Origin: an uncultured Chloroflexia bacterium
GTDB taxonomy: Bacteria > Chloroflexota > Anaerolineae > Anaerolineales > RBG-16-64-43
Assembly (NCBI GenBank): GCA_963780865.1
Contig: CAWADT010000006.1
Span: 20,858 to 84,857, forward strand
Direction: 5' to 3'
Length of the DNA stretch: 64,000 nucleotides
Shown piece by piece: positions 2,520 through 27,093 of the stretch. The position numbers and the translations under genes are program-made. The notes under the pieces were generated by a model, which saw only the letters and a program-made list of their open reading frames with translations, ran no database searches and had not been told where the DNA came from. How positions within the stretch are numbered: position 1 is the first letter of the stretch; the number at the start of each line of letters is the position of its first letter.

Positions 2520-3965
<1,446 letters not shown>

Positions 3966-5092: not shown

Positions 5093-5150
5093 AAAGTCTG
5101 ACATTTTCCGCACCATGTTTGGGATCCTGTGCGCATCATCATGCGGTCGC

Positions 5151-6812
<1,662 letters not shown>

Positions 6813-9390: not shown

Positions 9391-9471
9391 GCAGTATGCC
9401 TCCCAACGCCTAGCCTTTTTAATCTCATCGTGGAAAAAAGAATATCGCCGGCAATGGAGGAGTCCCCCGGT

Positions 9472-9996: not shown

Positions 9997-10148
9997 GTTC
10001 TCCATGCCGGATAGATTTTTATCGTGGATTTGTCGGGCTTTGAATAGATTGGATATAATGGGCAGCAACGCGCTTGTTTATGTCATTGAAAAAATAGTGT
10101 GTCCGTTGGAATCGGGGAGGATATTCTGCCTTCGGCAATCAGGATGAA

Positions 10149-10979: not shown

Positions 10980-11056
10980 GCCGTATCTCTACCGATGGCT
11001 TGAGGTTTTCGGCCCGAACAAAACGGGATTATTTTTCCGGGAAGTGACTTCTATCC

Positions 11057-11814
11057 CTACGTGTTCGCAGCAATCCGTTCGTCGGAAACCGACGGGAAGT
11101 CGAAAACCGATGAACAGAATTCCAGAAATTGATAATCCCTTCCATACCATGCTTTCAAGTTGCGTACGGTTTCTTCCTCGAGGTGTTTGCCCAAATCGGC
11201 GGGATTGCGGTGCGCGGAGAGATCGTCGGAGGGTAGGGGCAAGCCGGCAGCAAGTCCGAGTTTTTTCTTCAAGATATCAAAATCGACACCTAGATTCTCC
11301 TGCCTCCCGATGAAGAAAATATCCCGTTTTCTTTAGGGCAGAGACGCTTCGTTTTCAAACCAGTACCAGAAAGAATCGCGAACGTGTTGGATGCCGCGCA
11401 TGGCTCGCTCCGCCACAGCTTTTTTCTACTGAGAGCCGGGCGAAAGCGCCAGGGCCAGTTCATTGGGCGAATGAAAAATACCAAACGCCTCCGCCGCGCT
11501 CTAGGGCGAGTAGATGCGCGGCCGGCTTTGGTGTTGGCGCGAGTAGAAACCGCTGTCGAAGCGGTTGAGAGGATCCCGGAGGAGAAAGAAAACCTGCTCG
11601 CCTTCGGGAACGTCGCGCAGCCGATCCGGTGTGGATGCAGAAAAATGGCGTAGCGCTGCGTGACCGGCTGATTTTGCAGCGCGAACTTCATCGCTGTGCC
11701 GCCCGTCTCTCCGACGTGGAGCGTGTGGACGAATTGCTTTCCTTGCAAACGGTTAATCCTCAGGCGCAGAACGGCTTGCTGTGACGGAGAACCTTCACGC
11801 GGCATGCATACCAT
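11057..11814 (-). pseudogene. sulfotransferase (FVHxxKTGGT-type family), copy 2; one frameshift and three in-frame stops
   Basis: FVHTLHVGETGGTAMKFAL, then after a shift near 11615-11630 FFLLRDPLNRFDSGFYSRQ. In-frame TAG at 11501-11503, TAG at 11426-11428 and TAA at 11333-11335. The C-terminus IFFIGRQENLGVDFDILKKKLGL...DYQFLEFC stays in that same frame. Confidence 0.6.
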
Positions 11815-11872
11815 CCTAATCGCGAACGTTCGGACCGACAGCGGCCGTGATGGTTAATGAAGTGGAAGAAGG

Positions 11873-14790
11873 CTATGCTTCCGCGGATGGCCGGTGCAAG
11901 TGGGAATCGATGTTCTGCACATGGATCGATTTGGGGGCCGCCTGCCAGGACCTTTCCACGAAGGCGCCGTATTGGTTGAGCAGGTGCTCGATTTTGGCCG
12001 GAAAATCCGGTTTGTCCTCTCCGTTGTCGAAGGGCGGATCGAAATGGGTCAGGAGACAGCCGTCGATCCGGCGGGTGGTATAAAGCGGCACCACGACGGC
12101 ATCGGACAGCAGGGCCAACTGCGCAAAGCCCGGTTTGATCAGGTATCGGTGCGCCGCGATATTCACCGGGAGGCCGTCGGCGGCGTCGTATCCGAAATCG
12201 GGAATGATCTGGATTATTCCACCGCGCTGAAGCTCGCGCTGAGCTTCCACCGTGGCGTTGGCGATCAGCGCGGCCTGACTTTTTCTTCGTTCCGGGGCGG
12301 ACCGTTCCTTTTGATCCATTTTCCAGGCATAACCCGCGCTGAGCGTTGGGAAAGGCGCAACATGCATGTAGTGAGACAACGCAGGAGTGGAGAAACGGTG
12401 AGACATGCCGTGATACGTAACCAGGATTAGCCCCTTCCCCTGGCGAAGCGGCGGAGTGACGTTTTCGAGTCCCTCGACGGTGAAAAAATGCTTGAATACA
12501 TCCGATGTGCCCGACGCGATAATTCGGCCTGCGTCGCGGAAAAACGGGGAGGAAGACCGCTGCAGCGCCTTTTCGAAATTTTCTTCGGACCGAAACGGAA
12601 TGCGCGCCTGAAATTTGCGCGACCAAAGAATGCTGCTCAGTAGGTTGATATTCAGCGCCTCGGCCGGGGCGGCGGGGCAACCGCCAAGGCTGTCTACCCA
12701 ATGACGGAAAAGTTTTGCTTCGGCCGGATAAAAATGATCAACCACCCATGGCCGCCGGCACCAAGCCGAGAGCCAGCGCAAGCCTTGAGGGTAGTTGAAA
12801 AACAGGGTCAGGTATTCTGCGGCGAAGCGCAGGAAATAAATTGGCAAGGTGATCGAGCCGAATCCGAACTGCGCGGGGCGATACAGGTATTGCTTCTTAT
12901 AATCCGTCGTTTTCTTCCAGCGGCGGGGTTTCCCGGGATTGACCGCCGAGGGCGGGATTACCGTGATCGGGGATTCTCCGGATGCTGCCTCCCGCCGATC
13001 TCCTGTCCGTTCCTCGCTTTCCCAAAGTTCGCCGAGCCGGGCGATCGTCGGGTCATTATAGAATGCGAACGGGACGATCCGGTGGAAGGATTCCTCGACC
13101 TGCATCACCATGGTCATGGCCAGGAGCGAATCCCCCCCCAAGAGGAAAAAGTCGTCGTTCACCCCGACCCGATCCACCCCGAGGATCTCGGCCCATAGGG
13201 AACACAGCCGGCGCTGGGCGTCGTTGCGGGGTGCTTCCAGTGGCGTGCCGATATCGGGGCGGCCCATGCCCGGTTGAGGCAGCGCCGAACGGGACACCCG
13301 GTTGTTCGACGTCCGCGGAATCGCGTCGAGGAATACATACGTCGTCGGAATCATATGCGGGGGCAGGAGGGCGATCAGTTCCTTGCGCAGCTTGCGCACG
13401 GAAAGCTCCCCGCCGCCGACGCGGACGACGTAGGCCACCAGACGCTGATTTCCCGCCGGGGAAGAGCATTGGCGCGGTGGCGGCATCCGCAACGCCGGGT
13501 ATTTTCAGCAGGGCTGCCTCCACCGCTTCCAGTTGGATGCTGAAGCCCCGCACTTTGACGAGGTTGTCTTTCCGCCCGATATGTTCCAGCAGTCCGCCCG
13601 GCAACAACCGCCCCAAATCGCCGGTCAGGTAGATCCGACGGTCTCCCCCATCCGGGTCCGGAAGGAATTTGGCTTTGGTCAACTCGGGTTTCTGCCAATA
13701 CCCGCCCGCCAGATAGCGGCTGCGGACGGCGATCTGGCCCGGCTGATCGGGCGCGGCCGGTCGGCCATTCTCGTCCAGCAGGAGCAATTCCTTGTCCGGG
13801 ACCATTCGGCCGACGGGAATTTTCTCCCAAGGGATCGGGCCATCGAGGGGAATGCGCATTTCGCTCACCATCTGAGCTTCGGTGGAGGCGTAGCGTTGGG
13901 AAAATTGGGTGCTTTTCGGAAAGAGTTTCCGGAACTGTTCCACGTCCTCGCGCCTCAGTTCCTCGCCGCCGACCAACACCTGACGCAGGCGGGGCAGGGA
14001 GAACCTGGTGGTTACGGATTGATGCCGTAAAAACGCGCAGGAGGGCATGGAGAGAATCGTTATTTCTTCCTCGCGCAGCAATCCCATCAGCGAAGGTAAT
14101 GGGTAGGTTTGGTCCGTGATCGGATAAAGCATTACGCCGCTGAGGATAGCAGCCAATGCCATGGCCAAGCCCACGCCGCTGACGGGGGAAAGCAGGACGA
14201 ACTTGTCATTTTCCGTGAGCCGGTATCGGTCGTGGTTATACCAAGAGGTATGCAAAATCAATTCGTTGGAAATAATTACCCCTTTGGGTTCGCCGGTCGA
14301 GCCGGAAGTGTAAATGAGGGAAGCCGTCGAATCCGGCCGGATGCGAACGGATTCCAAGCCGGCGGTTCGAACTCTTAGGTTCGGATAGATCCATCCAGTC
14401 ACCGGTGGTGCGGGTGAGCTCATCCGCCAGCGGACCGAACGACGGATTCGTGATCACCAAAGGTTTTCGAGCGTCCTCCCAAACGGCGGCCAGTCCATTC
14501 AGCGGAAAACCCGGATTGAATACGACGGTGCTCTTCCCAGCCTTGAGGATTCCCAATGACGCCGTGAGGAGCTCTGTCCCTTCTTCGAGCAGCAGTCCGA
14601 CCGGTTCCTCGACCGGCCCGCGTTTGGCGAGGATCGAGCGCGCCAAATCATCCGAAGCCCGGTTCAATTCGGCATAGGTCAGCGAGGAATGCGGGGTTTT
14701 CACCGCGATCCGGTTGGGAACGGCTGCGGCCACCCGCCGGAAGCGCTGGGCGAGGTTCCCGCGTAGCTCTTCTCGGGGAAAGGGGATCAT
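11873..14790 (-). CDS. adenylation domain - carrier protein - LpxL/HtrB-like acyltransferase fusion; two frame breaks
   Basis: A-domain cores LIYTSGSTGEPKGV, YLTGDLGR and GRKDNLVKVRGFSIQLEAVE. Carrier motif FFLLGGDSLLAM. C-terminal GKGLILVTYHGMSHRF ... LQRGGIIQIIPDFGYD ... GFAQLALLSDAVVVPLYTTR resembles lipid A lauroyl-acyltransferase-type domains. Three ORFs (14236-14790, 13056-14423, 11873-13492) join at about 14340-14400 and 13452-13461. Confidence 0.8.
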
Positions 14791-15818
14791 GGCGCGGCGG
14801 TGCCCAATTTTTTATTTGCGGCATCCACAAACCGCGGGTCCCAGAGGGCGTCCAAGCCGGCGACCTTGTCCAATTTGCCCTTGCCCACCGCCCACTGCTG
14901 AAAATCGATGAGCCCCGACAGGTCGGTGCTCCCATCGTTGTGAATGGCGGGCCAGCAGATTTGTTTGAGGAGATCCGACGGGAGTTTGGTGTACTTTGCA
15001 AGGATTTCAAGGTTGCGGTCGGTTTTTCCCTGATTATATTGGTGGATGGCCTGCAGATAGGCAATGAGGAAGCGGTCACCGATTTCCGGATGGTCTTTGG
15101 TGAAGAGTTTGCCGAAGTCGAGGAAGCCGACGGGCATATTCGGGACAATTTCCTGGTATCCCTTCCAGACCACCATCTTGTTCGTAGCGACCAGGCGGGT
15201 GATCCATGGTTCGGCCGTATTGATGAAATCCACCGAACCATTTTGGGCCGCCGCGATCAAAGCGGTCGGCGGAAGATATTGGGTCTTGACGTCGTTTAAG
15301 GTGAGGCCGACCGTCCCCAGGAGCTTTTCGACGACAAATGCGCTGAAGCTGTTGGGTTCGACGGCGACGCGCATTCCCCGAATTCCGTCCGCCGAAAGCG
15401 TGGGATTCTTGGCCACCCATTCCGGAGTGGCGAGGATTGCCGAGTACGTGCAGCCGGTGGGCTCCAGATACCCTTTGTCGGCGACGATTTTAATGTTCCC
15501 CGTGGTATTGATGGCGTTGAACAATCCAATCGTCGGAGAGTCGCCTGCCGCGTCCAGGGTTCCCGCCTCCAGAACAGGCGTCATCAGGGTGGCGGAGTCG
15601 AAGGTCTGAAATTCCACATCCAGGTTTTGTGCGGTGAAGTACCCTTCATCCTGGGCGATGAATAAAGGCGCGGTGGAAAGAAATGAAGTGGTGCCTACTT
15701 CCACCTTTTGCGGCGCTGCATGTGTGGCGGGTTTGCAGGACGAAAACAGCAAACCAGCGGTTGCGAGTACAAGGAAAGAGGAAAAATGCAATTGATGCGT
15801 GCTTCGGAGGGATGGCAT
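14787..15818 (-). CDS. ABC transporter substrate-binding lipoprotein, NitT/TauT (NMT1/SsuA-like) family
   Basis: 343 aa. Signal peptide with lipobox LLFSSC. Periplasmic-binding pattern of the SsuA/TauA/ThiY type. Its stop overlaps the next gene's start as ATGA. Confidence 0.8.
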   Translation of the reverse strand: MPSLRSTHQLHFSSFLVLATAGLLFSSCKPATHAAPQKVEVGTTSFLSTAPLFIAQDEGYFTAQNLDVEFQTFDSATLMTPVLEAGTLDAAGDSPTIGLFNAINTTGNIKIVADKGYLEPTGCTYSAILATPEWVAKNPTLSADGIRGMRVAVEPNSFSAFVVEKLLGTVGLTLNDVKTQYLPPTALIAAAQNGSVDFINTAEPWITRLVATNKMVVWKGYQEIVPNMPVGFLDFGKLFTKDHPEIGDRFLIAYLQAIHQYNQGKTDRNLEILAKYTKLPSDLLKQICWPAIHNDGSTDLSGLIDFQQWAVGKGKLDKVAGLDALWDPRFVDAANKKLGTAAP

Positions 15819-15864
15819 GGGCTATCTCCTTCTCATAAAAAATAGGGTGGATTCTTCCTGTGCT

Positions 15865-16743
15865 CTAAATCTCGGGAATGGCTTTTCCCGGCAGTTCATA
15901 ATCTTGATCGATTTGCCAGGGGATCAGACGGCGGGAAAGGAATTCCAGCAAAACATGGCTTCCGATCCCGAGCAGAGCCGCCGTCAGCAACGCGACGTAA
16001 AGGATCTCGGTCTGCAGGGTCTGCCACGACGTCCAAATCAGCGCTCCCAATCCAATCTTGGCGTTGATCAGCTCAACGGCGATGGTGAGCATCAGGGATG
16101 ATCCCACGGCCAGCCGCACTCCGGAGAGCACCGATGGCAGGCTGCCCGGAAAGACCACGCGCCGCAGGAGCAGAAACGGCGAAGTTCCGTAGGATCTGGC
16201 GATCTCGATGTAATCCGGGTTGATCTGGCGTACGCCGGCCATCGAGTTGATCAGCAGCGGAAAGAATGCCGCCAGCGCAACGAGCACGATCCGCGAAGAT
16301 TCGCCCAGACCGAAGAGGATCAGGAACAGCGGGAAGAGCGCCAGTTTGGGCAGCGCATAGAGGCCGCTAACCAACGGATCGAGGATCCGCCTGAGGCGGG
16401 GGGATAAACCCAGCGCAATTCCCAGCAGGAGCCCCGCCGCACCCCCCGCCACCAGCCCGAATCCGAACCGGTAAAGGGTTGCCGCCAGATTCACCGCCAA
16501 TTCTCCGTTCCTGATCATCCTCACCAGGGTGACGGCAATCGACGAGGGGGCGGGGAAAAACAGAGTGCTGATCCAACCGGCGCGCGCGGCCAGCTCCCAG
16601 ACCGCGAGCCCCGCCAGCACCAGCAGCAGCGAGGCCCAACGCTCCAGTGCGCCGGGCCGCCAGCCGCGGGCCGCAGCGGTTACCGCCGGTGTTAACCCGC
16701 GTTCGGTTGAACTTCGGCTTCGATCGTCTGCCATATCTTCCAC
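15865..16743 (-). CDS. ABC transporter permease, NitT/TauT family
   Basis: 292 aa, about 6 TM segments, with the EAA-like loop IARSYGTSPFLLLRRVVFPGSLP. Confidence 0.8.
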   Translation of the reverse strand: MEDMADDRSRSSTERGLTPAVTAAARGWRPGALERWASLLLVLAGLAVWELAARAGWISTLFFPAPSSIAVTLVRMIRNGELAVNLAATLYRFGFGLVAGGAAGLLLGIALGLSPRLRRILDPLVSGLYALPKLALFPLFLILFGLGESSRIVLVALAAFFPLLINSMAGVRQINPDYIEIARSYGTSPFLLLRRVVFPGSLPSVLSGVRLAVGSSLMLTIAVELINAKIGLGALIWTSWQTLQTEILYVALLTAALLGIGSHVLLEFLSRRLIPWQIDQDYELPGKAIPEI

Positions 16744-17459
16744 TTAAGTGCCGTCGCTTCCGGTTGAGTGGCTGCACGCAGCGTGCGCGGTCGGGGGAGC
16801 GGCACGCGGTACTCCTCCAGAATCCTCCCCGGACGACGGCTCATCACCAGCACTCGGTCGCCCAGAATGATCGCTTCATCGATGTCGTGGGTGACATACA
16901 CCACGGTTTGTTTTTTCGCCGCCCAGGCTTGCAACAGCTCGGCTTGCAGGAGAAGCCGCATTTGCGCGTCCAATGCGCTGAACGGCTCGTCCATCAGCAG
17001 CACCGAGGCATCGGTGAGGAACGCTCGCCCCAGCGCGGCCCGCTGCCGCATCCCCCCCGAGAGCTCGTGCGGATAGTTTGGGGAAAAAGATTCCAACCCC
17101 ATGGTTTTCAGCCATCGCTCGGCTTCCCGGCGGCGATCGGCAAGGGGAACCCCCTGGGCTTCCAAACCGAAGGCCACGTTGTCGAGGATGGTCATCCAGG
17201 GGAACAAGCCGTGATCCTGAAACACCATCGCGCAGCGCGGAGTGTGCTTCGGCAATGGCCGCTCGAAGTGGATGCTTCCCGAGTTGGGCGATTGGATCCC
17301 GGCGATGAGTTTGAGCAGGGTGGTCTTCCCGCAGCCGCTCGGTCCCACCACGCACAGGAACTCATGGGGCTCAACCCGCAACTCCAGATGGTCCAACGCG
17401 GTCACTCGGCCATTGCTTGAAAAATACGCCTTGGATATATTGGAGCAGGAGAATTCCAT
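16692..17459 (-). CDS. ABC transporter ATP-binding protein, NitT/TauT family
   Basis: Walker A GPSGCGKTT, signature LSGGMRQR, Walker B LLMDEPFSALD. Confidence 0.85.
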   Translation of the reverse strand: MEFSCSNISKAYFSSNGRVTALDHLELRVEPHEFLCVVGPSGCGKTTLLKLIAGIQSPNSGSIHFERPLPKHTPRCAMVFQDHGLFPWMTILDNVAFGLEAQGVPLADRRREAERWLKTMGLESFSPNYPHELSGGMRQRAALGRAFLTDASVLLMDEPFSALDAQMRLLLQAELLQAWAAKKQTVVYVTHDIDEAIILGDRVLVMSRRPGRILEEYRVPLPRPRTLRAATQPEATALKWKIWQTIEAEVQPNAG

Positions 17460-17632
17460 CGCCGACGGGTCCCGGGGATCTCTATTTTCAGCAAGGGGAT
17501 AATTATAGCGCAGGAATCCCGGGTTTAGGTCCGAGATCGCAGTCGTTGTTCAGGCGACTGTCCCATTTTCGCGATTTTCCGTGGGACGAAAATCGGCTCC
17601 GAATGGCGCCCGATTCGAACCGCATGGCCCGT

Positions 17633-18406
17633 TTAGTGGTATCCCAGTTTTTCCATGACGGGGCCGGCGATTTCAAGAACGGCTTGCACCTCGGAGGCCG
17701 AAAGATCCTTGCCAAATTTGCCGATACTCTTGTCGTGGATTCGTTTGGCGTGAAAACCGGCTGGGTCCACCTGTAAGTAATCCGCCAGCCGCTGCAGCTC
17801 GCCGTTGGGGCGCTGGACAAGGTCCTCGTAGCGGAGAAGGAATAGGTCCTCGCGGTATTTTTCCATGGCGTCGATCGCGCGCACCCACTGCCGGGCCGCG
17901 TCCTGGACGGATTGAAACTCCTCCGCCCAGGGCAGCCCCTTCCATTTTGTGCGAACCATCTTCATGAAGGAGCTGATGACATCGCGCGCGTCGCGGTAGA
18001 TGATCACCCGGCGCAGCGCCTGCTGGCCGACGAGCGCGGGCAGGTCGAAGACATAGTGGGGGTATTTATCCCCGACGACGGGCTTATGCATTACACTCCG
18101 CAGCGCCTGCTCCACGTCGGCGAGTGTTACTTTCCCGGATGAAATCCGGCGTAAATGGGAGCGGTACATCTCCAGGAAGATTCCGCTGGCGAGCTTGAAA
18201 TACCATGGCGTCCTGCGGCCGATCCGCCAATAGAAACTGACGTGGCGCCAATCCGTTTCGATCGACCGGTAGTATTCCGTATACGGCGAATCAAGGTTCC
18301 GGAAGCATTTAAACTCGCCGGTGATGCCGATCTGCGGATGGTCGCGGCAGAGTTGAAATAGGAGCGTAGTGCCGGAGCGTGGATGACCGCCGATGATAAA
18401 GGCCAT
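17633..18406 (-). CDS. sulfotransferase (PAPS-dependent type), paralogue 1
   Basis: Start at ATG 18406 (MAFIIGGHPRSGTTLL, a 5'-PSB loop). IIYRDARDVISS (3'-PB). Shares C-terminal HxKSIGK...LGY with the neighbouring gene. Confidence 0.8.
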   Translation of the reverse strand: MAFIIGGHPRSGTTLLFQLCRDHPQIGITGEFKCFRNLDSPYTEYYRSIETDWRHVSFYWRIGRRTPWYFKLASGIFLEMYRSHLRRISSGKVTLADVEQALRSVMHKPVVGDKYPHYVFDLPALVGQQALRRVIIYRDARDVISSFMKMVRTKWKGLPWAEEFQSVQDAARQWVRAIDAMEKYREDLFLLRYEDLVQRPNGELQRLADYLQVDPAGFHAKRIHDKSIGKFGKDLSASEVQAVLEIAGPVMEKLGYH

Positions 18407-18417
18407 GCTGCTCCCGC

Positions 18418-19203
18418 CTAGGAATACCCGAGCCGGGCGAGCGTTTCCCCGGCGATCGATTCCACCGCGGCGAGCGCTTGGGGCTCGAGTCCGGCGCGGT
18501 GTTTCCCGATGCTCTTCTCGTGCAGGATGTGGATTGGAAAATCCGCCGCCTTGACGCCGAGCGCCAGGCCGAGTTCCTCCGCCACGGCCCTGGGTTCGGA
18601 CATCAGCCGTTCGTAGCGCACGGGAATGATCTTCCCCGCGCAGCTTTCCATGAGCTGGATGGATTTCACCCAGCGCATGGCCACTTTCTCCGGCGTGTCG
18701 AAGGCGTGGACGAAGTCCAGGTCTTTCCAAACCGACCGCGCGATGGCCAGCGTGGAGCTGACCACATCGCGCGCGTCGCGGTAAATGACGATGCAGGTTA
18801 GCTTATCGCATCCGGCGAAGTACTTGAGACTCCAAATATAATCGGGGAATTTATCCCCCACCCAGCGCCGATGGGGAAACAAACCGTGGAGGGCGGATTC
18901 CGCGCCGGTAAATCCGATCCGCCACGAACGTGTCCCCTGAATTCGCAGCAAATAGCTTGCGATAAACAGAAGATTCGAGCGAAGCGGGGTCGGTTCATTC
19001 CGGAAAAAGTTGACGCGGCCGCCTTTGCGCGCGATGGCGACGGTTTGGCGAAGAATGTAGGTGGAATAGTACGCCCGCGATCGGCCCAGGTATTTCAGGT
19101 TTGAAAATTCATTAGTGACGGCGATCTCCGGATGGCTGTTGAGGAGACTTCGCAGGATCGTCGTTCCGGAGCGTTGATGCCCGGTCACCAGCAGCAGCGG
19201 CAT
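18418..19203 (-). CDS. sulfotransferase (PAPS-dependent type), paralogue 2
   Basis: Start at ATG 19203 (MPLLLVTGHQRSGTTIL). VIYRDARDVVSS. Tandem paralogue of 17633-18406. Confidence 0.8.
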   Translation of the reverse strand: MPLLLVTGHQRSGTTILRSLLNSHPEIAVTNEFSNLKYLGRSRAYYSTYILRQTVAIARKGGRVNFFRNEPTPLRSNLLFIASYLLRIQGTRSWRIGFTGAESALHGLFPHRRWVGDKFPDYIWSLKYFAGCDKLTCIVIYRDARDVVSSTLAIARSVWKDLDFVHAFDTPEKVAMRWVKSIQLMESCAGKIIPVRYERLMSEPRAVAEELGLALGVKAADFPIHILHEKSIGKHRAGLEPQALAAVESIAGETLARLGYS

Positions 19204-19211
19204 GGTCGAGG

Positions 19212-21071
19212 TTAGCGTTCCTTTCGCAGGGAGTCCATCTGTTTGGATTGCATGGTGTAGAGCGCCGCATACACCCCCTTCTTCCGCATCAATTCCGGAT
19301 GGGAGCCGTCCTCGACGATTTTCCCCTGGTCCATCACGATGATCCGGTCGGCCATGCTCACCGTGGAAAACCGATGGGAGATGATGATCGTTGTCCGGTT
19401 CTTGGCCAGGTCGCGGAAAAGGCAGAAAATCTCGTACTCCGAACGCGGGTCGAGCGACGAGGTCGGCTCGTCCAGGACCACAACCGATCCGTTGCTGGCA
19501 AATGCGCGGGCGATCGCGATCTTCTGCCATTGGCCGCCCGAAAGATCCACCTCGCCGAACATCCTCCCCAGGATGGTTTCATACCCTTGCGGAAGCCGGT
19601 GGATCAGCGGGTCGATCCCGCACATCTTGCCGATGGCCTTCACCGCCTCCGGGTCGTCCATCAGGCGCTTCCAATCGCCGTAGGCGATGTTCTCGTGCAC
19701 GCTGCCCTCGTATTTGCCAAACGGCTGGAAGACGCTGGAATATTGCTGATAGAGGAACTCCTGGGAATATTCGTCGAGCGGATGGTTATCGAGGAGAATC
19801 CGGCCGTGGGTGGGCGCATACAGGCCGGAGAGCAATTTCACCAGCGTGGTTTTTCCGGCGCCGTTTTCACCCACTAGCGCCACCACCTCCCCTTTGCGGA
19901 TGTGCAGCGACACCCCCGAGAGCGCCGGCGCGGCGGTCCCCGGGTAGAAAAAGGTGACATGCTCCATCTTCAGGTCGCCATCGATGGCGGCGGGCCGGTA
20001 GGAGCCCTCGATGGTCAGGACGGGTTCGGTCCGCAGCAGCACGCGGATATGGTGGATGTAGATCGTATCCTCCAGCGCGTTTCCGGCGGTGAGCACCGTC
20101 TGCTCGATATCGCGCCGCAACCGAAGCGCGGCGCTCCCGAAAATCGTCAGGTCGCCGAGGGTCAGCGCGTGGTCGCGGATTTTTGTGACAATTCGCCACA
20201 GCAGATACGTCACCAGGCCGCTGGTGAGGAGGGAATAGATCGTCTGCATGATCAGCGCCGCACGGCGCATCCCCTGGTCCTGTCCGATGAATTCCTTCAG
20301 GAGGTCGTCGAACTTACGTAGCAAAAACGGGCCGAGGCCGAGCAGTTTGATTTCCGGCAGGAAGGATGGTGTGGTCAGACGACCGGTGAAATAGCGCGTC
20401 CAGCGCCGCTTGGTCGTCCGCAATTGTTCCAGTTCCGTTCGGCGGATGACGAGCCGCCATTCGAACCAGAAATATCCCAGCATGATGGGCAGGAAGATCG
20501 GCAGGATGATCGGGTCGATTTGGAATAAGAGGGCTGCCAGGATGGCGCTCTCCAGGATGATCGATCCCAGATTGATGATGTTGGAGAGAAAGTTGGCGAA
20601 GGTGCCCCCGGCGTTTTGCTGGGCGATGCTGAGAGTATCCTGGAATTGCAGATCTTCCAATTGCGCTAGGTCCAGTCGGGAAGTGTGTTCCAGCACGTCC
20701 ACGGTGATGTTCCGGCTGATCGTATCCTGGAAATACAGGTTCACGTAATTTTCCACCAGGGAAATCAATGCGTCCATCAGCGCCGCGCCCAGGCCGACCA
20801 GCAGCCACAAGTAGATCCGGTTGTCGTTGGCGGAGTGTCCGTTAACGGCCGCGGCGACCGCGTTGACCAGCCCGCGGGTGGAGACGGCCAGCAGGGCCGG
20901 GATGCTGCTGGAGGCGGCCGCCAGCGCGATCATCGCGATCACATGGAAGGGCTTATGGGAGAAGGAATATTTAAGCGTCCATGCACCCTCGCTAAAGAGG
21001 GTGCTGAGATTGGAACGCAAACCTTTTTGAAGCAGGTTGATTCTAAGCTGGGAGGAAGTGCGATAATTCAT
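19212..21071 (-). CDS. ABC exporter, fused permease/ATPase half-transporter (MsbA-like)
   Basis: 619 aa. Six-TM N-terminal domain, GENGAGKTT, LSGGQWQKIAIARAF, VVLDEPTSSLD. Its ATG overlaps the upstream stop as ATGA. Confidence 0.85.
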   Translation of the reverse strand: MNYRTSSQLRINLLQKGLRSNLSTLFSEGAWTLKYSFSHKPFHVIAMIALAAASSSIPALLAVSTRGLVNAVAAAVNGHSANDNRIYLWLLVGLGAALMDALISLVENYVNLYFQDTISRNITVDVLEHTSRLDLAQLEDLQFQDTLSIAQQNAGGTFANFLSNIINLGSIILESAILAALLFQIDPIILPIFLPIMLGYFWFEWRLVIRRTELEQLRTTKRRWTRYFTGRLTTPSFLPEIKLLGLGPFLLRKFDDLLKEFIGQDQGMRRAALIMQTIYSLLTSGLVTYLLWRIVTKIRDHALTLGDLTIFGSAALRLRRDIEQTVLTAGNALEDTIYIHHIRVLLRTEPVLTIEGSYRPAAIDGDLKMEHVTFFYPGTAAPALSGVSLHIRKGEVVALVGENGAGKTTLVKLLSGLYAPTHGRILLDNHPLDEYSQEFLYQQYSSVFQPFGKYEGSVHENIAYGDWKRLMDDPEAVKAIGKMCGIDPLIHRLPQGYETILGRMFGEVDLSGGQWQKIAIARAFASNGSVVVLDEPTSSLDPRSEYEIFCLFRDLAKNRTTIIISHRFSTVSMADRIIVMDQGKIVEDGSHPELMRKKGVYAALYTMQSKQMDSLRKER

Positions 21072-22525
21072 AGGATTCTTTTCTTGGCCACGGCAATTCT
21101 ATTCTGTTTTCTCGACTTTGGGGAAAGGAAATATTCTACCGCCGCCCGCACAAACCGGCTCCAGGTGGGTAACGCTCGGATCGATGCCCCGTTGCGAATG
21201 GCGCGGGACACGGCGACCGCCGCCGATCGCACATCTTTCCGGAAAACCGATTGCGCGAAAACTGTCAAATAGAGGGTCGTGACTTCCCCCCGATCGGAAT
21301 GGGGTACCACCCCGGTATTGAGGAGATCGCGCCAGATTGCATCGATGCTCGCGATGGGGGTACCACCTGATGCCCCGATCAGCGCCGATTGCAAGCTTTT
21401 GACGATCTCCCGCGTGCTCAAACCGGAGGAGAGCGCCCTCATCTTCCCCGGGTCCGGTGTGCGACCCCGTTGGTATTCCCACCATAGTAAATGCAGCCAA
21501 TCCAGAATCTTCCGGACCCGCTCCGGATACGGATTCCCCGGCAGTGGAATCCGGCAAAGGATTTCCCCCAGCGATGCGGTTTTTTCCCAGGCAACTCCGT
21601 ATTCCAGCGCCTGGTGAATCAGTTGACTTTGCCATACGAGGGGTATCTGGTCCGGAGATTGCTCGGCGAAGGGGATGGTTCCCTCTAAAAGGGCTGCCAT
21701 TCGCGCGTGGTCGCCGTTGCGCCACAAATCGAACGCCAGCCAGAGCAGGGTGTAGTAGCGCACTGACGGTTCCCATTCCCGCACGCCGGCGGAAAGGGTG
21801 GGCATCGCGAAGAAGCTGTCGACCGCAGCCATCAGATCGCCGGCTTGGCGCTGGCTGTCGCGCGTGATATTGGTGGCGTGCTGCCGGTAGCAGACGGTGG
21901 GTTCCCGAAGCCAGCGCATCCGGCACCCGGCGGCGGCCAGCCGGAACATCATCTCCACATCGTCGGTCTGGAACAGGCGCGGGTTGAACGCTCCGGCTTT
22001 CCGCAGCCAGTCCGAGCGCACGAGGAGGCCGCCCAGGAAAACGGGCTTCCACATCAGCCAGGTTTTCAAGTCGAGAATCGGGGCAATCTTCCAAGGTTGG
22101 ACAATTTGGAGCAGGTTTCCGCGCTCGTCGACCGTCTGCCAGCCGCTGTGAACGGCGCCCAGCTGCGGATGGGCGGCAAGTAGTTGCGCCTGCGCTCTTA
22201 ATTTCCCCGGTAGAAAAAAATCGTCGGAATCCAAAAACGCAATAAACCTTCCGCGGGCTTTCGCGATCCCCGCGTTGCGGGCGGCCGCAGGCCCTCGCCG
22301 ATCCTGACGCAGGTAATGAATGTTGGGAGCGGTGAAGGCCGCCATCAGCGAGGGCGTTGTATCGGTCGAGCCGTCGTCGACGACGATCAACTCCCAGTTC
22401 GGATAATCCTGCGCCCGCACGCTGTCGACGGCTTGCCGGATAAATTCGGCATGGTTGTGCGTCGGCATGATCACGCTGATGGAGGGGGGATCCGGAACCG
22501 GCGATGATTTGGAGAAGAAGGTCAT
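21068..22525 (-). CDS. family 2 glycosyltransferase with a roughly 250-aa C-terminal domain of unknown function
   Basis: ISVIMPTHNHAEFIRQAVDSVRAQDYPNWELIVVDDGSTD and FLDSDD. Start set at ATG 22525, which overlaps the upstream TGA as ATGA. Confidence 0.8.
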   Translation of the reverse strand: MTFFSKSSPVPDPPSISVIMPTHNHAEFIRQAVDSVRAQDYPNWELIVVDDGSTDTTPSLMAAFTAPNIHYLRQDRRGPAAARNAGIAKARGRFIAFLDSDDFFLPGKLRAQAQLLAAHPQLGAVHSGWQTVDERGNLLQIVQPWKIAPILDLKTWLMWKPVFLGGLLVRSDWLRKAGAFNPRLFQTDDVEMMFRLAAAGCRMRWLREPTVCYRQHATNITRDSQRQAGDLMAAVDSFFAMPTLSAGVREWEPSVRYYTLLWLAFDLWRNGDHARMAALLEGTIPFAEQSPDQIPLVWQSQLIHQALEYGVAWEKTASLGEILCRIPLPGNPYPERVRKILDWLHLLWWEYQRGRTPDPGKMRALSSGLSTREIVKSLQSALIGASGGTPIASIDAIWRDLLNTGVVPHSDRGEVTTLYLTVFAQSVFRKDVRSAAVAVSRAIRNGASIRALPTWSRFVRAAVEYFLSPKSRKQNRIAVAKKRIL

Positions 22526-23925
22526 AGGGTGCCGCGATTCGGCTCGCGCCGGTTGCGGAGATAGAATTGGGCGCCGGATCGCATGAATCGATACCAAGGG
22601 AATACTGCCCGGAAACCGGTGGAACTTTTCAGCGCCTTACCAAGGCATACGCTCGCCGAACCGATCCTGCCGGCGGAGAGGGCGCGAAGGTAACAATTTA
22701 AATACAGGGTAATGACCTCACGCCGATCCACCGGGGGGACGATTCCGATCTTCACGGCATCCTGCCATAACCGATCCACCACCGCCGGCGGCGTTGGATG
22801 CCGATCGCTGCTGATGCAATCCTGCGCCAGTTTTACCAGATCGCGCGTCGAGCCGATGTTCGGGTTCCCCGCGGTGAGCAATCCGTTCCCGGTTCCCAAT
22901 GCATAGGAAAGCCAGACAGTCCACCACCAGCGGAACAGGATCCGGACTTTTTCCTCCTCCGGTGCTGGAAGCGCAAGGATCGGAAGCGTCAGATCGAGAA
23001 AATCGTCCAAGCCGATCGGCGCAAGGCCGTTCTCTGCGGAGAGTTGGTGAAACGATTCCCGCCAATTCTTTAATTGAATGAATGCGGTTTCCTGCCGAAA
23101 TCGTTTCACTTCCTTGAGGGCTTCCCCCGCCTGGAAGGGAAAACCCCGCGACCACAGATACCACGCCAGCCAGAGATTGGTCGCATTCCGGATCGAATCT
23201 TCCTTTGGGCAAAGTTCCGCAGGCAGCTGTGGGGAGGCGAAAACTTTATCGAGAGCACGGAGGAGAAAGAACGCCTGGCGGGGGGCATTTTGCATGATGC
23301 TGACCGGATGTTGGCGGTAACCATAAGTGGTTTTCCGGAGCCAGCCTATCTTTCCACCTGCGAGAAGAATCCGGAAAACCAGATCGGTATCCATCGACGC
23401 GTCAGATTCCGGATCGAATCCGCCAACCCGATCGAGGATCTCCCGCCGGAACAATTTTGAACAGAGCATGGTCGGTTTCCAGATTAAGCAGGATTCCAGA
23501 TCAAACACCGGCGCATGTTCCCAGGGGGCGATCTCGGCGAGATTCTTTCCCTGGACATCGACAATTTGCCATCCTGAGGAAACGACATCCAATGACGGTT
23601 CGGCGGAAAAACAGCCCAGGGCATCGCGGAGGGCTTCCGGGTAGAGATAATAATCATCGGAATCTAAAAACGCAATCCAGCGTCCGCCGGCGTGGGTTAA
23701 GGCTGTGTTGCGGGCATGCGCCGCTCCCCGATGGTCCAGGAAATAAGGCCGGATCTTCTCACCGTATGATTCCAGCAGTGCCCGAGTTCCATCCGTGGAG
23801 CCGTCATCCACGACAAGAATTTCTTTGGATGCGGACGATTGCATCAAGGCGCTGTCGATCGCCTGACGCAGGGTGCCGGCGCGATTATAGGTGGCGATCA
23901 GTATGCTGATATCCACGGAACTCAT
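22522..23925 (-). CDS. family 2 glycosyltransferase, paralogue of 21068-22525 with the same C-terminal extension
   Basis: ISILIATYNRAGTLRQAIDSALMQ...EILVVDDGSTDGT and FLDSDD. The C-terminal halves are colinear (for example EVITLYLNCYL against EVTTLYLTVFA). Confidence 0.8.
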   Translation of the reverse strand: MSSVDISILIATYNRAGTLRQAIDSALMQSSASKEILVVDDGSTDGTRALLESYGEKIRPYFLDHRGAAHARNTALTHAGGRWIAFLDSDDYYLYPEALRDALGCFSAEPSLDVVSSGWQIVDVQGKNLAEIAPWEHAPVFDLESCLIWKPTMLCSKLFRREILDRVGGFDPESDASMDTDLVFRILLAGGKIGWLRKTTYGYRQHPVSIMQNAPRQAFFLLRALDKVFASPQLPAELCPKEDSIRNATNLWLAWYLWSRGFPFQAGEALKEVKRFRQETAFIQLKNWRESFHQLSAENGLAPIGLDDFLDLTLPILALPAPEEEKVRILFRWWWTVWLSYALGTGNGLLTAGNPNIGSTRDLVKLAQDCISSDRHPTPPAVVDRLWQDAVKIGIVPPVDRREVITLYLNCYLRALSAGRIGSASVCLGKALKSSTGFRAVFPWYRFMRSGAQFYLRNRREPNRGTL

Positions 23926-24833
23926 GCGGTCCTTGCCGGCGGAATGGAACGGCGCTGCCGGGCCGGCCGTTCCCAGCGAATGCCGGCGCTATGGGCAAGG
24001 ATTCCACCCCAAACCAGCAAACCTTCCCGCAGGCCCGGTCCTTTTTGGCGCATGGTTCGCAATAGAGTGAGGTGGAATTGCGGCCGGCGGCGCTGCCCGA
24101 TATTCAGCGGGATGCCGAGGCTTTGGAGATGATCCCGCATCAGTGCATACCCGCGTCCGTATTGGAATTGTTGTCGCAGGTATCGGCCGGCGGTGCGCGG
24201 ATGGGCGTGGCGCAGGCGCGCTTCCGGGACGTAATGCTGTCGATATCCGCGCGCGCATAAACGATGGCTCAGATCCAGATCCTCCGCGCCGGGGCGGGGG
24301 AAGCAATCCGCGAATCCACCCAGTTCAAGAAACACGTCGCGGCGATAGATGGCATTGTTGCTCATTAACAGATACGGATCCCCGTTGGGCAAATGCTGAT
24401 ACCCCCGGTAAAACTCCAGAAAATATTGATAGGCGCGCGCCGAAAAATTTTCCGGGAATAGGTTGAGAGTTTGCCCGCCGCACGCGTGCCAAGGCGATTG
24501 CCAGATCCCGGTGGCCATCTCGCGCAGCCAGCCGGGTTCGAGAACGCAATCATCGTCCAGGAAGGCCACCAGATCCGCTTCGGCATGACGTGCGCCGAGA
24601 TTGCGCGCGGCGGCTGGACCCTGCGCGGGGGTGGAGAGCAAAGTGGCGGAGTTGGAATCGAAGAAACGCCCGGTGATGATCGCCGAGGGATCCTGGCCGC
24701 CATCGTTAATCACAATCAGCCGCCAATTCTCGCGCGGGTAGTCCTGCCGGGCGAGACTTTCCACGCACTGGGTTAGGTATTCCAAACGATCTTTGGTCGG
24801 GAGTACAACGCTAATCCGGGGAAGATTTATCAC
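23922..24833 (-). CDS. family 2 glycosyltransferase
   Basis: ISVVLPTKDRLEYLTQCVESLARQDYP...LIVINDGGQD and FLDDDC. Stop and next start overlap as ATGA. Confidence 0.8.
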   Translation of the reverse strand: MINLPRISVVLPTKDRLEYLTQCVESLARQDYPRENWRLIVINDGGQDPSAIITGRFFDSNSATLLSTPAQGPAAARNLGARHAEADLVAFLDDDCVLEPGWLREMATGIWQSPWHACGGQTLNLFPENFSARAYQYFLEFYRGYQHLPNGDPYLLMSNNAIYRRDVFLELGGFADCFPRPGAEDLDLSHRLCARGYRQHYVPEARLRHAHPRTAGRYLRQQFQYGRGYALMRDHLQSLGIPLNIGQRRRPQFHLTLLRTMRQKGPGLREGLLVWGGILAHSAGIRWERPARQRRSIPPARTA

Positions 24834-24838
24834 GGACG

Positions 24839-25996
24839 CTAATGCCGGATAACCATGCGGATGGAATCCAAGAAAACCTTGGAGACCGAAGTGGCTTCAA
24901 AGTGCTGCGCGACCAGCAAGCCTCGCGCGGAAAATTCCTGCGCGAGCGCCGGATCTTCCAGAAGGCGTTGGATGCGATTGGCAAAAAGCGTGGTGTCCTG
25001 CGGATCGACAATAAAACTGTTTTCTCCATTTTGCAGGTAATCTGCAACACCCGCGAACGACGAGCATATTACCGGCACCCCGCTGGCCATGGCTTCAATC
25101 ACGACCACCCCAAAGGTATCCTCGCGGGAGGGGAGGATGAACATCTTCGCCCGGGCATACTCGGAGGAAATGCTCGCCGGATCCACAAAGCCGGCGAATT
25201 GGACCCGATCGGATAACCCGGCCAATCTTGCCTTCTTTTCCAGTTTATTCCGAAGCGACCCGGTGCCGACGATGCGCAAGAGGACATCGGGTTTTGCGGC
25301 GGCCACCTGGAAAAACGCCTCCAGCAAGAGATCAATGCCTTTCCGTTCGGTGAGCGAACCCACGAACAGAATGGGTGGTCGGGAATCCGCCTGGCTGCGC
25401 CTGGCTGCTTCGGCTTTCGTGGTGAACCGCGCCGTATCGTAAACCTGGGATGCCTCCAAAACGAATTTCGGATCCGCACCCAGGTGAATGAGATTCTCAC
25501 AGGCGCTGCGGCTGGTTCCCAAATACCCCTGGGCCCGGGGGACGATGATCCGGCGGGTCCACCGTTGGCCGCGGGAAAGCGCGCGGTCCGTGAAGGCTGT
25601 GCATTCCGACCAGGTGATATAGGGGCGACGGAATAAACGGCAATACACCAGGGCGGTTATCGCCGGGATGGAAAACTCATAGCCGATGATGACATCCGGC
25701 CGAAACCGGATCAGTTCGAAAAAAAGCGTAGGATTGAAGAACAGGGTTCGGTTTTCATGGTAATGGGTTTTGGGGAGTTGAATCGAGAAACCGGGCAAGA
25801 CGCGATTGGGAAACGCCAGAGTCGCCGGATCGATTTCCCATTTTCGCTCCCAACTCCGGAATGTGCTGAACAAGACGAGCAGCTCCACGGCGCCGGATTG
25901 ATGGATCGCCCGGAAGAGTGGAATTCGATACGGCATGATTTCATTATTCAGAAGGACAACGCGGGGGAGAGCGCGGACGGAGGATGAAGGGGCCAT
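24839..25996 (-). CDS. family 4 (GT-B, group 1) glycosyltransferase
   Basis: ILFVGSLTERKGIDLLLEAF...FILPSREDTFGVVVIEAMASGVPVI (E-x7-E region). Confidence 0.85.
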   Translation of the reverse strand: MAPSSSVRALPRVVLLNNEIMPYRIPLFRAIHQSGAVELLVLFSTFRSWERKWEIDPATLAFPNRVLPGFSIQLPKTHYHENRTLFFNPTLFFELIRFRPDVIIGYEFSIPAITALVYCRLFRRPYITWSECTAFTDRALSRGQRWTRRIIVPRAQGYLGTSRSACENLIHLGADPKFVLEASQVYDTARFTTKAEAARRSQADSRPPILFVGSLTERKGIDLLLEAFFQVAAAKPDVLLRIVGTGSLRNKLEKKARLAGLSDRVQFAGFVDPASISSEYARAKMFILPSREDTFGVVVIEAMASGVPVICSSFAGVADYLQNGENSFIVDPQDTTLFANRIQRLLEDPALAQEFSARGLLVAQHFEATSVSKVFLDSIRMVIRH

Positions 25997-26012: not shown

Positions 26013-26588
26013 CTATTTGCCCATCGCCTGCAGCGCCAGCCGCAGCCTGGTTTCCGTATCCGGCGGCGCGTCCGCCGGGATTCGCTGCAGGGCGGTTTGC
26101 GCTTCCACGATGGAATACCCCAGCGCGGTGAGCGCCGCGATGACTTCGGTGTCGGTTTCGCTCCAGCCCGGCGCGCCCGCGCCGCCTTCTCCGGCCAATT
26201 TATCTTTCAAATGAAAGACGATCTTCTCGGCAGTCTTCTTGCCCACGCCGGGAATTCCGGACAAACGGTCGGGCGCGTTGCGCGCGATCGCCTGCCGCAA
26301 CGCATCGGTGGAAAAGTGCGACAGCAGCGAGAGCGCCACCTTGGGGCCGATTCCGCTCACGCCCAGCAGCAGTTCGAAGAAGGCCAGCTGGTCGGGGGTT
26401 TCAAACCCAAAGAGGGCCAGCGCGTCCTCCCGTACGAGCAGATGGGTGAACAGCGCCAGGGTTTGGCCGGGGCGGGCGCGGGCGGCGAGCGGAACCGGAA
26501 CCGAAACCCGGATCCCCATCCCGCCGAGATCGATCACCACCCAGGCGTCCCCCGATTGCTGGACGTTCCCGCGAATGGATGCGATCAC
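26013..26588 (-). CDS. ruvA: Holliday junction DNA helicase subunit RuvA
   Basis: (V)IASIRGNV..., LLGVSGIGPKVALSLLS, and the IPGVGKKTAEKI HhH motifs. GTG start at 26588 overlaps the ruvC stop as GTGA. Confidence 0.9.
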   Translation of the reverse strand: MIASIRGNVQQSGDAWVVIDLGGMGIRVSVPVPLAARARPGQTLALFTHLLVREDALALFGFETPDQLAFFELLLGVSGIGPKVALSLLSHFSTDALRQAIARNAPDRLSGIPGVGKKTAEKIVFHLKDKLAGEGGAGAPGWSETDTEVIAALTALGYSIVEAQTALQRIPADAPPDTETRLRLALQAMGK

Positions 26589-27082
26589 TTGGCCTCCGCA
26601 GAGAGTTGGGCGATTTTGTAGGAATGGGCGTGGCAGATCGCCACCGCCAGCGCGTCGGCCGCGTCGTCCGGTTTGGGCGCTTCCGGAAGCGAGAGCAGCG
26701 CGCGCACCATGGCTTGCACCTGCCGCTTTTCGGCCCCGCCGTAGCCGGCCACCGCCTGCTTCACTTGCATCGGCGTATACTCGCTCACCGGCACGCCGCC
26801 GCGGGCGAGGGTCAGCAGGATCACCCCGCGCGCCTGGCCGACGGTGATGGCGGTGCGGACGTTTTTTTGGAAAAACAAACTCTCCACCGCCGCACTGTCC
26901 GGCGCGTGGAGAGCGAGCAATTCGGTCAGCCGGTCGTGAAGCTCCAGGAGCCGGCGGGGCATCGGCAATTCGGCGCCGGTGCACACCGTCCCGAAGGCGA
27001 TCAGCGTAAGCCTCCCGGCGGATTCCTCGATCACCCCGTATCCGGTCGTCGCGGTGCCGGGATCGATGCCCACGACGCGCAT
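26585..27082 (-). CDS. ruvC: crossover junction endodeoxyribonuclease RuvC
   Basis: MRVVGIDPGTATTGYGVIE ... ESLFFQKN ... DAADALAVAICH catalytic acidic residues. Confidence 0.9.
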   Translation of the reverse strand: MRVVGIDPGTATTGYGVIEESAGRLTLIAFGTVCTGAELPMPRRLLELHDRLTELLALHAPDSAAVESLFFQKNVRTAITVGQARGVILLTLARGGVPVSEYTPMQVKQAVAGYGGAEKRQVQAMVRALLSLPEAPKPDDAADALAVAICHAHSYKIAQLSAEAK

Positions 27083-27093
27083 GATGGCCGCCC

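Follow-up and report, generated by a model that had tools for sequence, protein, structure and literature searches.

A conserved Anaerolineales gene cluster predicted to make a sulfated, acylated cell surface glycoconjugate

The 64,000-nucleotide (nt) stretch of contig CAWADT010000006.1 analyzed here (GenBank assembly GCA_963780865.1, positions 20,858 to 84,857 of the forward strand; referred to below as the window) derives from an uncultured Chloroflexia bacterium of the order Anaerolineales. Its minus strand carries a cluster of 11 co-directional coding units that runs from position 25996 down to 11873. On balance, we lean toward the view that this cluster is a conserved Anaerolineales locus, in which two linked transcription units make a small sulfated, acylated, membrane-anchored oligosaccharide and move it to the cell surface. 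Gene families, protein folds, sequence motifs, synteny, and a conserved promoter box were observed directly. The original prediction, made from the sequence alone, had proposed that these genes act together to make an exported glycan or glycolipid that is sulfated and acylated. This proposal is supported by the recurrence of the gene set in nine other contigs of related organisms, including an Anaerolineales metagenome-assembled genome (MAG), where the exporter is 67% identical, as well as metagenome contigs from JGI and ENA.

Gene content and organization of the cluster

Open reading frames (ORFs) and Pfam profiles bore out the predicted order and direction of the 11 genes, and each family assignment scored above its gathering threshold. 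The first gene encodes a GT4 glycosyltransferase (24839 to 25996; 385 amino acids [aa]; Glycos_transf_1, 9e-42). Three genes for GT2 glycosyltransferases follow: GT2a (23922 to 24833; 303 aa; Glycos_transf_2, 3e-25), with a GTG start 5 nt past the GT4 stop; GT2b (22522 to 23925; 467 aa; Glycos_transf_2, the three GT2s ranging from 3e-25 to 1e-35); and its paralog GT2c (21068 to 22525; 485 aa; Glycos_transf_2, 1e-35). Next come an ATP-binding cassette (ABC) exporter with fused transmembrane and nucleotide-binding domains (19212 to 21071; 619 aa; ABC_tran, plus ABC_membrane below the cutoff) and two sulfotransferases of the type using 3′-phosphoadenosine-5′-phosphosulfate (PAPS), namely, sulfotransferase 1 (18418 to 19203; 261 aa; ATG 8 nt past the exporter stop; Sulfotransfer_3, 1e-17) and sulfotransferase 2 (17633 to 18406; 257 aa; Sulfotransfer_3, 2e-20, and Sulfotransfer_1, 7e-11). 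Beyond a gap of 173 nt (17460 to 17632) lie the genes for an importer ATPase (16692 to 17459; 255 aa; ABC_tran, 2e-31), an importer permease (15865 to 16743; BPD_transp_1, 7e-25), and a NitT/TauT-type binding lipoprotein (14787 to 15818; 343 aa; NMT1_2, 3e-17), the latter preceded by AAGGAG. The last gene (11873 to 14790) encodes a fusion of adenylation, carrier, and PatA/LpxM-like acyltransferase domains (AMP-binding, PP-binding, and Lip_A_acyltrans) with a conceptual length of 976 aa distributed over three frames; we refer to it as the acylation or A-T-acyltransferase gene.

ATGA start/stop overlaps occur exactly where they had been predicted, i.e., at 23922 to 23925, 22522 to 22525, and 21068 to 21071, around GT2b and GT2c, and at 14787 to 14790, between the binding protein and the acylation gene. 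Three further junctions measure 5 to 11 nt, and 17460 to 17632 is the only sizeable gap, as had also been proposed. The start of the permease gene is uncertain; a GTG at 16743 results in a 52-nt overlap with the ATPase gene, which recurs in the orthologs of two related loci (L008 and L010). The families that the original prediction had marked as doubtful, those of the sulfotransferases and of the LpxL-like domain, passed the Pfam profiles, and the LpxL-like domain also passed a structure comparison.

Two probable linked transcription units

The cluster had been viewed as a single translationally coupled operon of 14 kb, which was not supported. Judged from sequence, it is rather a pair, at least, of linked transcription units, because all five orthologous gaps that were compared have an unchanged TATAAT box and because the two halves of the cluster are convergent in locus L008, where the importer and acylation genes lie on one strand and the transferase, exporter, and sulfotransferase genes on the opposite one. 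Unit 1 (25996 to 17633) would extend from the GT4 gene to sulfotransferase 2, and unit 2 (17459 to 11873), headed by the ATPase gene, would have its own promoter at the conserved box.

The TATAAT box was found at 17502 to 17507, ∼6 nt from the predicted 17508 to 17513, within the block TTCCTGCGCTATAAT, and the ATG of the ATPase gene follows 42 nt later. When the orthologous gaps, taken from loci whose proteins are 50 to 80% identical, were aligned, they showed TATAAT with a few flanking bases (TTCYTG.G.TATAAT) as the only invariant block (5/5). The box precedes the ATPase start by 42 to 50 nt in the five loci, the rest of the gap being poorly conserved. A consensus scan of the gap detected no canonical −35/−10 pair; the −10 box alone is conserved. 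The hairpin that had been predicted together with the box was not supported, as the fold energy of the gap equals that of shuffled sequences (z = 0.23). An Rfam scan of the 173 nt returned nothing at the gathering threshold and one meaningless microRNA match (E = 5.5). With no Rfam family and a fold no better than shuffles, a riboswitch or other known RNA in the gap was rejected. A small peptide was likewise rejected, since the 40-aa ORF present in the gap is not conserved among the orthologous gaps.

On the upstream side, yebC (27094 to 27852), ruvC (26585 to 27082), and ruvA precede the GT4 gene on the minus strand (26013 to 27852 in all). There are 11 nt between yebC and ruvC, ruvC and ruvA overlap by GTGA, and ruvA ends 16 nt before the GT4 gene. 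This tight same-strand spacing indicates that the co-directional array does not begin at 25996, and the 5′ border of transcription may therefore lie farther upstream. The true start of ruvA is the GTG at 26588, which yields a 191-aa protein; the 323-aa ORF listed for this gene is an overextension that runs across ruvC.

Conservation across relatives

The gene contexts of relatives were obtained through homolog look-ups. Close relatives share the order GT2-GT2-ABC exporter-sulfotransferases-ATPase-permease-binding protein-A-T-acyltransferase, with variable copy numbers of sulfotransferases (two or three), A-T-acyltransferase genes (one to three), and binding proteins (one or two). The window cluster is flanked by M42 peptidase and/or ATP synthase genes, and so are seven of the loci to the extent that their contigs cover this region; this flank was not seen on the L001, L008, and L012 contigs. 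A Caps_synth-type glycosyltransferase gene (10149 to 10979, plus strand; Caps_synth, 4e-41), encoded opposite to the cluster, keeps its position and orientation in a JGI contig of 22.8 kb and in loci L013 and L014; it may act as a fifth transferase in the pathway. The distant locus L012 (34% identity) is rearranged to binding protein-A-T-acyltransferase-binding protein-A-T-acyltransferase-sulfotransferase-sulfotransferase-GT4-GT4 and also encodes a candidate polymerase, a membrane protein of 449 aa with multiple passes.

Divergence is uneven along the cluster. Compared with L013, the closest relative, the exporter and the permease of the window are 88% and 95% identical, versus only 50% for GT2b and 62% for GT2a. 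Transferases that diverge far faster than transporters form a pattern that would be expected for a surface-exposed glycan.

In a further contig, L011 (positions 1 to 10000), a 35%-identical A-T-acyltransferase gene sits beside three or four sulfotransferase genes, two GT2 genes, and ScmC, PqqD-like, and NTP_transf_5 genes, a set that hints at peptide modification in that lineage.

Glycosyltransferases, sulfotransferases, and exporter

Transmembrane (TM) segments were predicted in none of GT2a, GT2b, GT2c, and the two sulfotransferases, and the GT4 protein has only one hydrophobic stretch, located inside its catalytic domain; therefore, none of these transferases looks like a processive membrane synthase. 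Sequence matches of the GT4 protein in PDB (PimB′, BshA, and PimA) cover its C-terminal half only. The best NCBIfam match of the soluble GT2a is a MftF-like model (146 bits versus a cutoff of 280). GT2b and GT2c are 36% identical over their full length. The C-terminal extensions of both, ∼230 aa long in GT2b, matched no Pfam family.

Sulfotransferases 1 and 2 score 65.3 and 74.3 bits, respectively, with Sulfotransfer_3 (cutoff, 27) and are 32% identical to each other. Their translations read GHQRSGTT and IYRDARDVVSS (sulfotransferase 1) and GHPRSGTT and YRDARDVISS (sulfotransferase 2), in agreement with the 5′-phosphosulfate loop (xRSGTT) and the 3′-phosphate motif (RDxRDxxxS) of PAPS sulfotransferases. 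Both enzymes may transfer sulfate to a sugar acceptor. PDB matches of sulfotransferase 2 are weak, to tyrosylprotein and CurM sulfotransferases.

The exporter resembles MsbA at the superfamily level only (TIGR02203, 273 bits versus 602; PRK11176, 224 versus 867), and four strongly hydrophobic segments exceed a simple hydropathy threshold. In a Nitrospirota MAG, the gene for a 41%-identical exporter homolog lies just ahead of one for a double-GT2 protein, a pairing that ties this exporter subfamily to glycan synthesis.

The adenylation-carrier-acyltransferase fusion

Domain content and order of the last gene agree with the prediction of an adenylation-carrier-acyltransferase fusion, although its reading frame in this sequence does not (see below). 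On the minus strand, the adenylation (A) domain spans ∼13290 to 14790, the carrier, with its GGDS motif, ∼13028 to 13213, and the acyltransferase ∼11876 to 12850. Pfam searches with the three pieces yielded AMP-binding matches of 55 and 126 bits and a PP-binding match of 51 bits, and the sequence has the core motifs YTSGSTGEPKG, TGD, and GGDS. With 410 cluster representatives at E ≤ 1e-3, and 148 at 1e-10, among 1.84 billion, this is a small family, and most of its members are ∼960 to 1000 aa long. Literature searches turned up no description of the three-domain fusion or of sulfated glycolipids in Chloroflexota.

The A domain is of the nonribosomal peptide synthetase (NRPS) type, with LgrA as its best solved relative (6e-137). 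DltA models are among its better matches (174 to 188 bits versus cutoffs of 476 to 560), and intact homologs reach 271 bits with the amino acid adenylation model TIGR01733 (cutoff, 317). Alignment to LgrA assigned the code VGMCLGRMV(R) to the ten specificity positions of the pocket. In adenylation domains, Asp235 binds the α-amino group of the amino acid. The window gene has Val at this position; in 41 homologs, it is Ala, Ser, Thr, His, or Gln and never Asp. At pocket position 322, the window gene shares Arg with 38 of these 41, the three exceptions being outlying sequences. Because the pocket lacks Asp235 and has a nearly invariant Arg, the A domain probably activates something other than an α-amino acid, perhaps an acid with an anionic group that is read by the pocket arginine. 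The A10 lysine (Lys517; NGKVDR), catalytic and usually considered invariant in the adenylation superfamily, is replaced by arginine in the window gene (NNRVSR, 13266 to 13286, minus strand) and in the whole nearest clade, and it is retained in distant members.

The acyltransferase domain matches Lip_A_acyltrans (PF03279) at 25.3 bits (cutoff, 22.3; E = 1e-5), the family precomputed on most intact homologs too. No PDB sequence matched this domain alone, and its kinship with PatA and LpxM therefore had to be sought by structure comparison. Using a model with a pLDDT of 86.7, Foldseek retrieved PatA (E = 4e-10; template-modeling [TM] score, 0.62 to 0.65 on the target) and LpxM (E = 4e-7), with GPAT1 next (3e-3). 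The presumptive active-site His and a downstream Asp are invariant across 20 homologs. The sequence reads H-G-x-x-N/H-R; the fifth residue after His is mostly Arg in the nearest relatives and varied in distant ones, without being Asp or Glu.

The importer and its pairing with the acylation gene

At the family level, the importer is of the NitT/TauT type, with the binding protein (63.7 bits), permease (88.3 bits), and ATPase (109.7 bits) all above the cutoffs. No substrate-defined equivalog among SsuA, TauA, NrtA, and CmpA was reached (SsuA_fam, 67.5 versus 163.5 bits, and others lower). The NCBIfam models nearest to the ATPase, those of SaoA and of taurine and nitrate ATPases, all stay below their cutoffs, as does the SsuC/TauC-like assignment of the permease, which has multiple TM segments. 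Among PDB sequences, the binding protein found matches of 1e-4 at best. Its AlphaFold model (pLDDT, 91) is nearest to the solved folds of TauA and SsuA (target-normalized TM score, 0.75 to 0.81), followed by bicarbonate, nitrate, thiamin-precursor, and PQQ binding proteins. The signal peptide ends in LLFSSC, and lipobox-type N termini are found in all orthologs. A metagenome scan with this protein returned just one irrelevant match of 25%. Two cysteines, C123 (GC.Y) and C288 (CWP), are invariant in 30 homologs, where a disulfide or a ligand site is possible.

In 9/9 loci (counting a fragment in L011), the binding protein gene directly precedes an A-T-acyltransferase gene, and L012 preserves this adjacency with neither permease nor ATPase next to it. 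Desulfonating enzymes of the TauD/SsuD type and PAPS synthesis genes were found in none of the loci. The original prediction had left two roles for the importer, supply of the acid to be activated or of sulfur. The constant adjacency and the lack of a desulfonating enzyme in any locus argue for the former and against the latter, and the simplest reading is that the importer feeds the acid of the A domain to the acylation module. As a speculation, the TauA/SsuA-like fold and the pocket arginine suggest that the imported acid may bear a sulfonate or a second carboxylate.

Frameshifts in the acylation gene

The last gene spans three frames, with ORFs at 14236 to 14790, 13056 to 14423, and 11873 to 13492, owing to two +1 insertions. 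Consistently, residues 1 to 138, 152 to 449, and 449 to 971 fell in three different frames in tblastn searches with two intact homologs. Site 1 (14337 to 14376, minus strand) comprises 13 codons plus one extra base, where intact homologs have 13 residues, the insertion being most simply an A at 14366 to 14367. At site 2 (13449 to 13451, minus strand), the window reads GGGAAATCAG and its close relative L013 GGCAATCA; the codons GGC GGG AAA TCA of the window correspond to GGC GGC AAT CAA, which places the extra base in AAA. Public gene calls on the source contig include only a 537-aa tail of this gene. Programmed frameshifting is implausible, given two separate +1 sites without a shared motif.

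Probably, both frameshifts are assembly errors rather than true inactivation. This is the likelier explanation because the housekeeping genes pyrB and pyrF of the window also bear one frameshift each, of the same single-base kind, and because sister contigs with long-read-style names are more fragmented, riddled with split genes that include ATP synthase alpha. Most other long genes of the window are intact. Moreover, apart from the two shifts, the acylation gene is 49 to 60% identical to intact homologs end to end and has no other lesion. That the gene is truly dead, and that this strain makes only a sulfated, nonacylated product, is possible yet the more doubtful alternative. It would fit with the two +1 insertions, which are independent of each other and fall within 900 nt and outside long homopolymers, with real decay of the 3′ flank (8.3 to 11.9 kb), which contains a diverged duplication and gene fragments, and with the presence of a single acyltransferase fusion here versus two or three copies in relatives. 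More generally, scattered single-base indels mean that split genes of this assembly are not safely called pseudogenes without a check of the reads.

In the pyrB-pyrF region (37313 to 39789, plus strand), the C terminus of PyrB goes on in another frame past ∼38215. The N terminus of PyrF lies in the frame of ORF 37313 to 38662, and its remainder is in ORF 38326 to 39789, fused to a phosphoribosyltransferase domain. A separate Sulfotransfer_3 gene (33020 to 33730, plus strand) is also split by one frameshift into an N-terminal part with GCGHSGTS and a C-terminal ORF (33209 to 33730); the joined translation fits the full profile at 1e-23. The stretch from 8300 to 11870 has a low GC content (0.51) and contains a diverged tandem duplication of ∼1.59 kb (8540 to 9805 versus 10129 to 11390; 70 to 82% identity), a second, broken Caps_synth copy, a 77%-identical fragment of the neighboring M42 peptidase gene (9781 to 10068), and a multiply frameshifted ORF (∼11060 to 11814). 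We considered the latter as a third sulfotransferase, of the Sulfotransfer_2 type (∼11060 to 11800), an assignment that is unsupported, as its conceptual translation has no Pfam match.

Proposed pathway and alternatives

In the pathway that we favor, the GT4 and the three GT2 enzymes of unit 1 would attach a few sugars, on the cytoplasmic side of the membrane, to an acceptor that is either a lipid or a polyprenyl, the two PAPS-type sulfotransferases would sulfate the resulting oligosaccharide, and the MsbA-like half-transporter would flip or export the product. In unit 2, the TauA/SsuA-like lipoprotein, together with its permease and ATPase, would take up an external carboxylic acid, which the NRPS-type A domain would activate and load onto the fused carrier; the PatA/LpxM-like domain would then move it from the carrier onto a sugar of the membrane-bound intermediate, forming an ester. 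The overall order would be glycosylation, sulfation, acylation, and transport across the membrane. The acceptor, the acid that is loaded, the sequence of the steps, and the export of a lipid-linked rather than soluble product are inferred. Several findings weigh against this pathway. The cluster has no initiating phosphoglycosyl transferase, polymerase, ligase, or lipid synthesis gene, and no PAPS synthesis gene was detected in the scanned ORFs of the window. In its deposited form, the acylation gene yields no full-length protein. The A10 arginine could denote unusual or weak adenylation chemistry, and the acyltransferase appears to lack the acidic residue that a strict HX4(D/E) motif requires. 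By its profile scores, the exporter matches MsbA no further than the superfamily, and its fold relatives also export soluble glucans and peptides.

Three other products or roles were considered. Instead of a discrete glycolipid, the cluster might make a building block on a polyprenyl carrier, either a repeat unit or a side chain, for a larger sulfated polymer (an exopolysaccharide or a wall polymer) that genes elsewhere polymerize or ligate. The best NCBIfam neighbors of the transferases, EpsD/EpsE, TuaG, and Hps, belong to exopolysaccharide and teichuronic acid synthesis (all below cutoff), the conserved Caps_synth neighbor would suit such a role, and L012 has its polymerase candidate. We nevertheless regard a polymer as unlikely, with neither Wzx, Wzy, a chain-length regulator, a priming transferase, nor a ligase in the window cluster or its close relatives and with an acyltransferase closest to enzymes that act on glycolipids. 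Slightly less probable still is an importer that does not supply the acyl donor and provides instead sulfur for PAPS, from a sulfonate or sulfate ester, or an acceptor such as taurine, leading to an N-acyl sulfonate lipid. The TauA- and SsuA-like fold of the binding protein, the proximity of permease and ATPase to SsuC, TauC, and taurine ATPase models, and the sulfotransferases always close by all speak for this role. It is at odds, however, with the missing desulfonation and PAPS synthesis genes and with a binding protein that stays with the A-T-acyltransferase even in L012 and in L008, where the sulfotransferases are on the other strand; in addition, the PatA and LpxM relatives of the acyltransferase acylate sugars.

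The original prediction had also pointed to a likeness with Nod factors or sulfolipids. A diffusible signal, either a Nod-factor-type lipo-oligosaccharide or a glycosylated sulfated peptide, is very improbable. Sulfotransferase 2 has short, weak matches to NoeE and to tyrosylprotein sulfotransferases, the exporter also resembles HlyB-type peptide exporters, and PqqD-like and NTP_transf_5 genes adjoin the fusion gene in the distant L011. Against these stand the best GT2 score with the NodC model TIGR04242 (46 bits versus a cutoff of 550, in the N-terminal region only), the NoeE score (31 bits versus 500, over a 40-residue stretch), and the absence of NodA, NodB, and NodIJ ABC-2 families from Pfam scans of all 11 genes. 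Furthermore, neither the window cluster nor its close relatives encode a precursor peptide or a peptide recognition protein, and the 40-aa ORF of the gap is not conserved.

Comparison with known systems

By analogy, the cluster would work most like the phosphatidylinositol mannoside (PIM) pathway of mycobacteria (GT4 enzymes plus PatA) mixed with the Dlt system (adenylation, carrier, and envelope decoration), with sulfation added. In the PIM pathway, GT4 enzymes (PimA/PimB′) are likewise combined with a PatA-fold acyltransferase that esterifies a membrane glycolipid sugar at the cytoplasmic face, PatA acylating a mannose of PIMs. Of all solved structures, PatA resembles the acyltransferase domain most closely, and PimA and PimB′ are among the PDB matches of the GT4 protein. 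In contrast to the acyl-CoA used there, the donor here would be a fused, ATP-loaded carrier, and sequence identity is ∼15%. Sulfation, the three GT2s, the ABC exporter, and the importer are without counterparts in the PIM pathway, and inositol lipid genes are missing from the cluster. The Dlt system (DltA, DltC, and DltB/DltD), which D-alanylates teichoic acids, shares the loading of a carrier by NRPS-type adenylation and the acyl decoration of an envelope glycopolymer. It differs in that the A domain described here scores below DltA cutoffs and has a pocket without the amino-group Asp, that the transferase is of the LpxL/PatA type instead of an MBOAT, that the three parts are fused, and that a dedicated importer is present.

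With LpxL/LpxM (PF03279), the acyltransferase shares a Pfam match above the cutoff, the LpxM fold, a predicted carrier-bound donor, and the invariant His, whereas the acidic residue of HX4(D/E) appears to be missing. The locus holds no lipid A pathway genes, and Chloroflexota are generally regarded as lacking lipopolysaccharide; the cluster is not a lipid A pathway. Only the general idea of a PAPS-sulfated sugar core that is acylated and exported links it to sulfolipid-1 (Stf0, Pks2, PapA1/2, FadD23, and MmpL8) and Nod factor (NodABC, NodH/NoeE, and NodIJ) synthesis. Protein families differ at almost every step, with no polyketide synthase, PapA, MmpL, NodA, or NodB here. Since their defining proteins are absent or below the model cutoffs, the cluster is a member of neither system, and the specific likeness proposed originally was not sustained. 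Finally, the importer has the three-part architecture and family-level profiles of TauABC/SsuABC, along with TauA and SsuA as nearest folds, yet identity is 15 to 20% and equivalog models remain below the cutoff. Unlike those systems, it lies among biosynthesis genes and is joined with an adenylation enzyme instead of TauD/SsuD, and its binding protein clade has the two invariant cysteines.

Other features of the window

On the plus strand, a 165-aa Ras-family small GTPase (32420 to 32917; Pfam Ras, 7e-40) is encoded in this bacterial genome, adjoining an unannotated 246-aa ORF. A low-GC island (40000 to 44000; 0.45 versus ∼0.6), in which the third-position GC of ORFs is 0.28, is possibly foreign DNA; one of its proteins (42296 to 42925) has two YbaB/EbfC-like stretches. 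In a 564-aa ORF on the minus strand (45322 to 47016), N-terminal residues 24 to 68 match only the last quarter of a DNA methylase profile, which reflects either an unusual architecture or another broken gene.

Implications

The fusion of adenylation and carrier domains with a PatA-like acyltransferase is rare and uncharacterized, and its pairing with a TauA-like binding protein leads to a testable hypothesis of import and attachment. In its most specific form, which we put forward tentatively and consider unlikely to hold, the locus would be a device to scavenge and attach. An environmental acid, possibly an organosulfonate or otherwise doubly anionic, would be bound outside by the TauA/SsuA-like lipoprotein and inside by the pocket arginine; once imported, it would be loaded by the A domain with its A10 arginine and esterified onto a sulfated surface glycolipid. 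If true, single-membrane Chloroflexota would have a hitherto undescribed means of decorating their envelope, using a compound that is not of their own making. The fast evolution of the transferases suggests a product under selection from phages or neighbors. Anaerolineales are abundant in sludge, sediments, and mats, and their envelope chemistry is almost unknown; the locus described here points to a conserved sulfated, acyl-decorated surface glycoconjugate in these bacteria.

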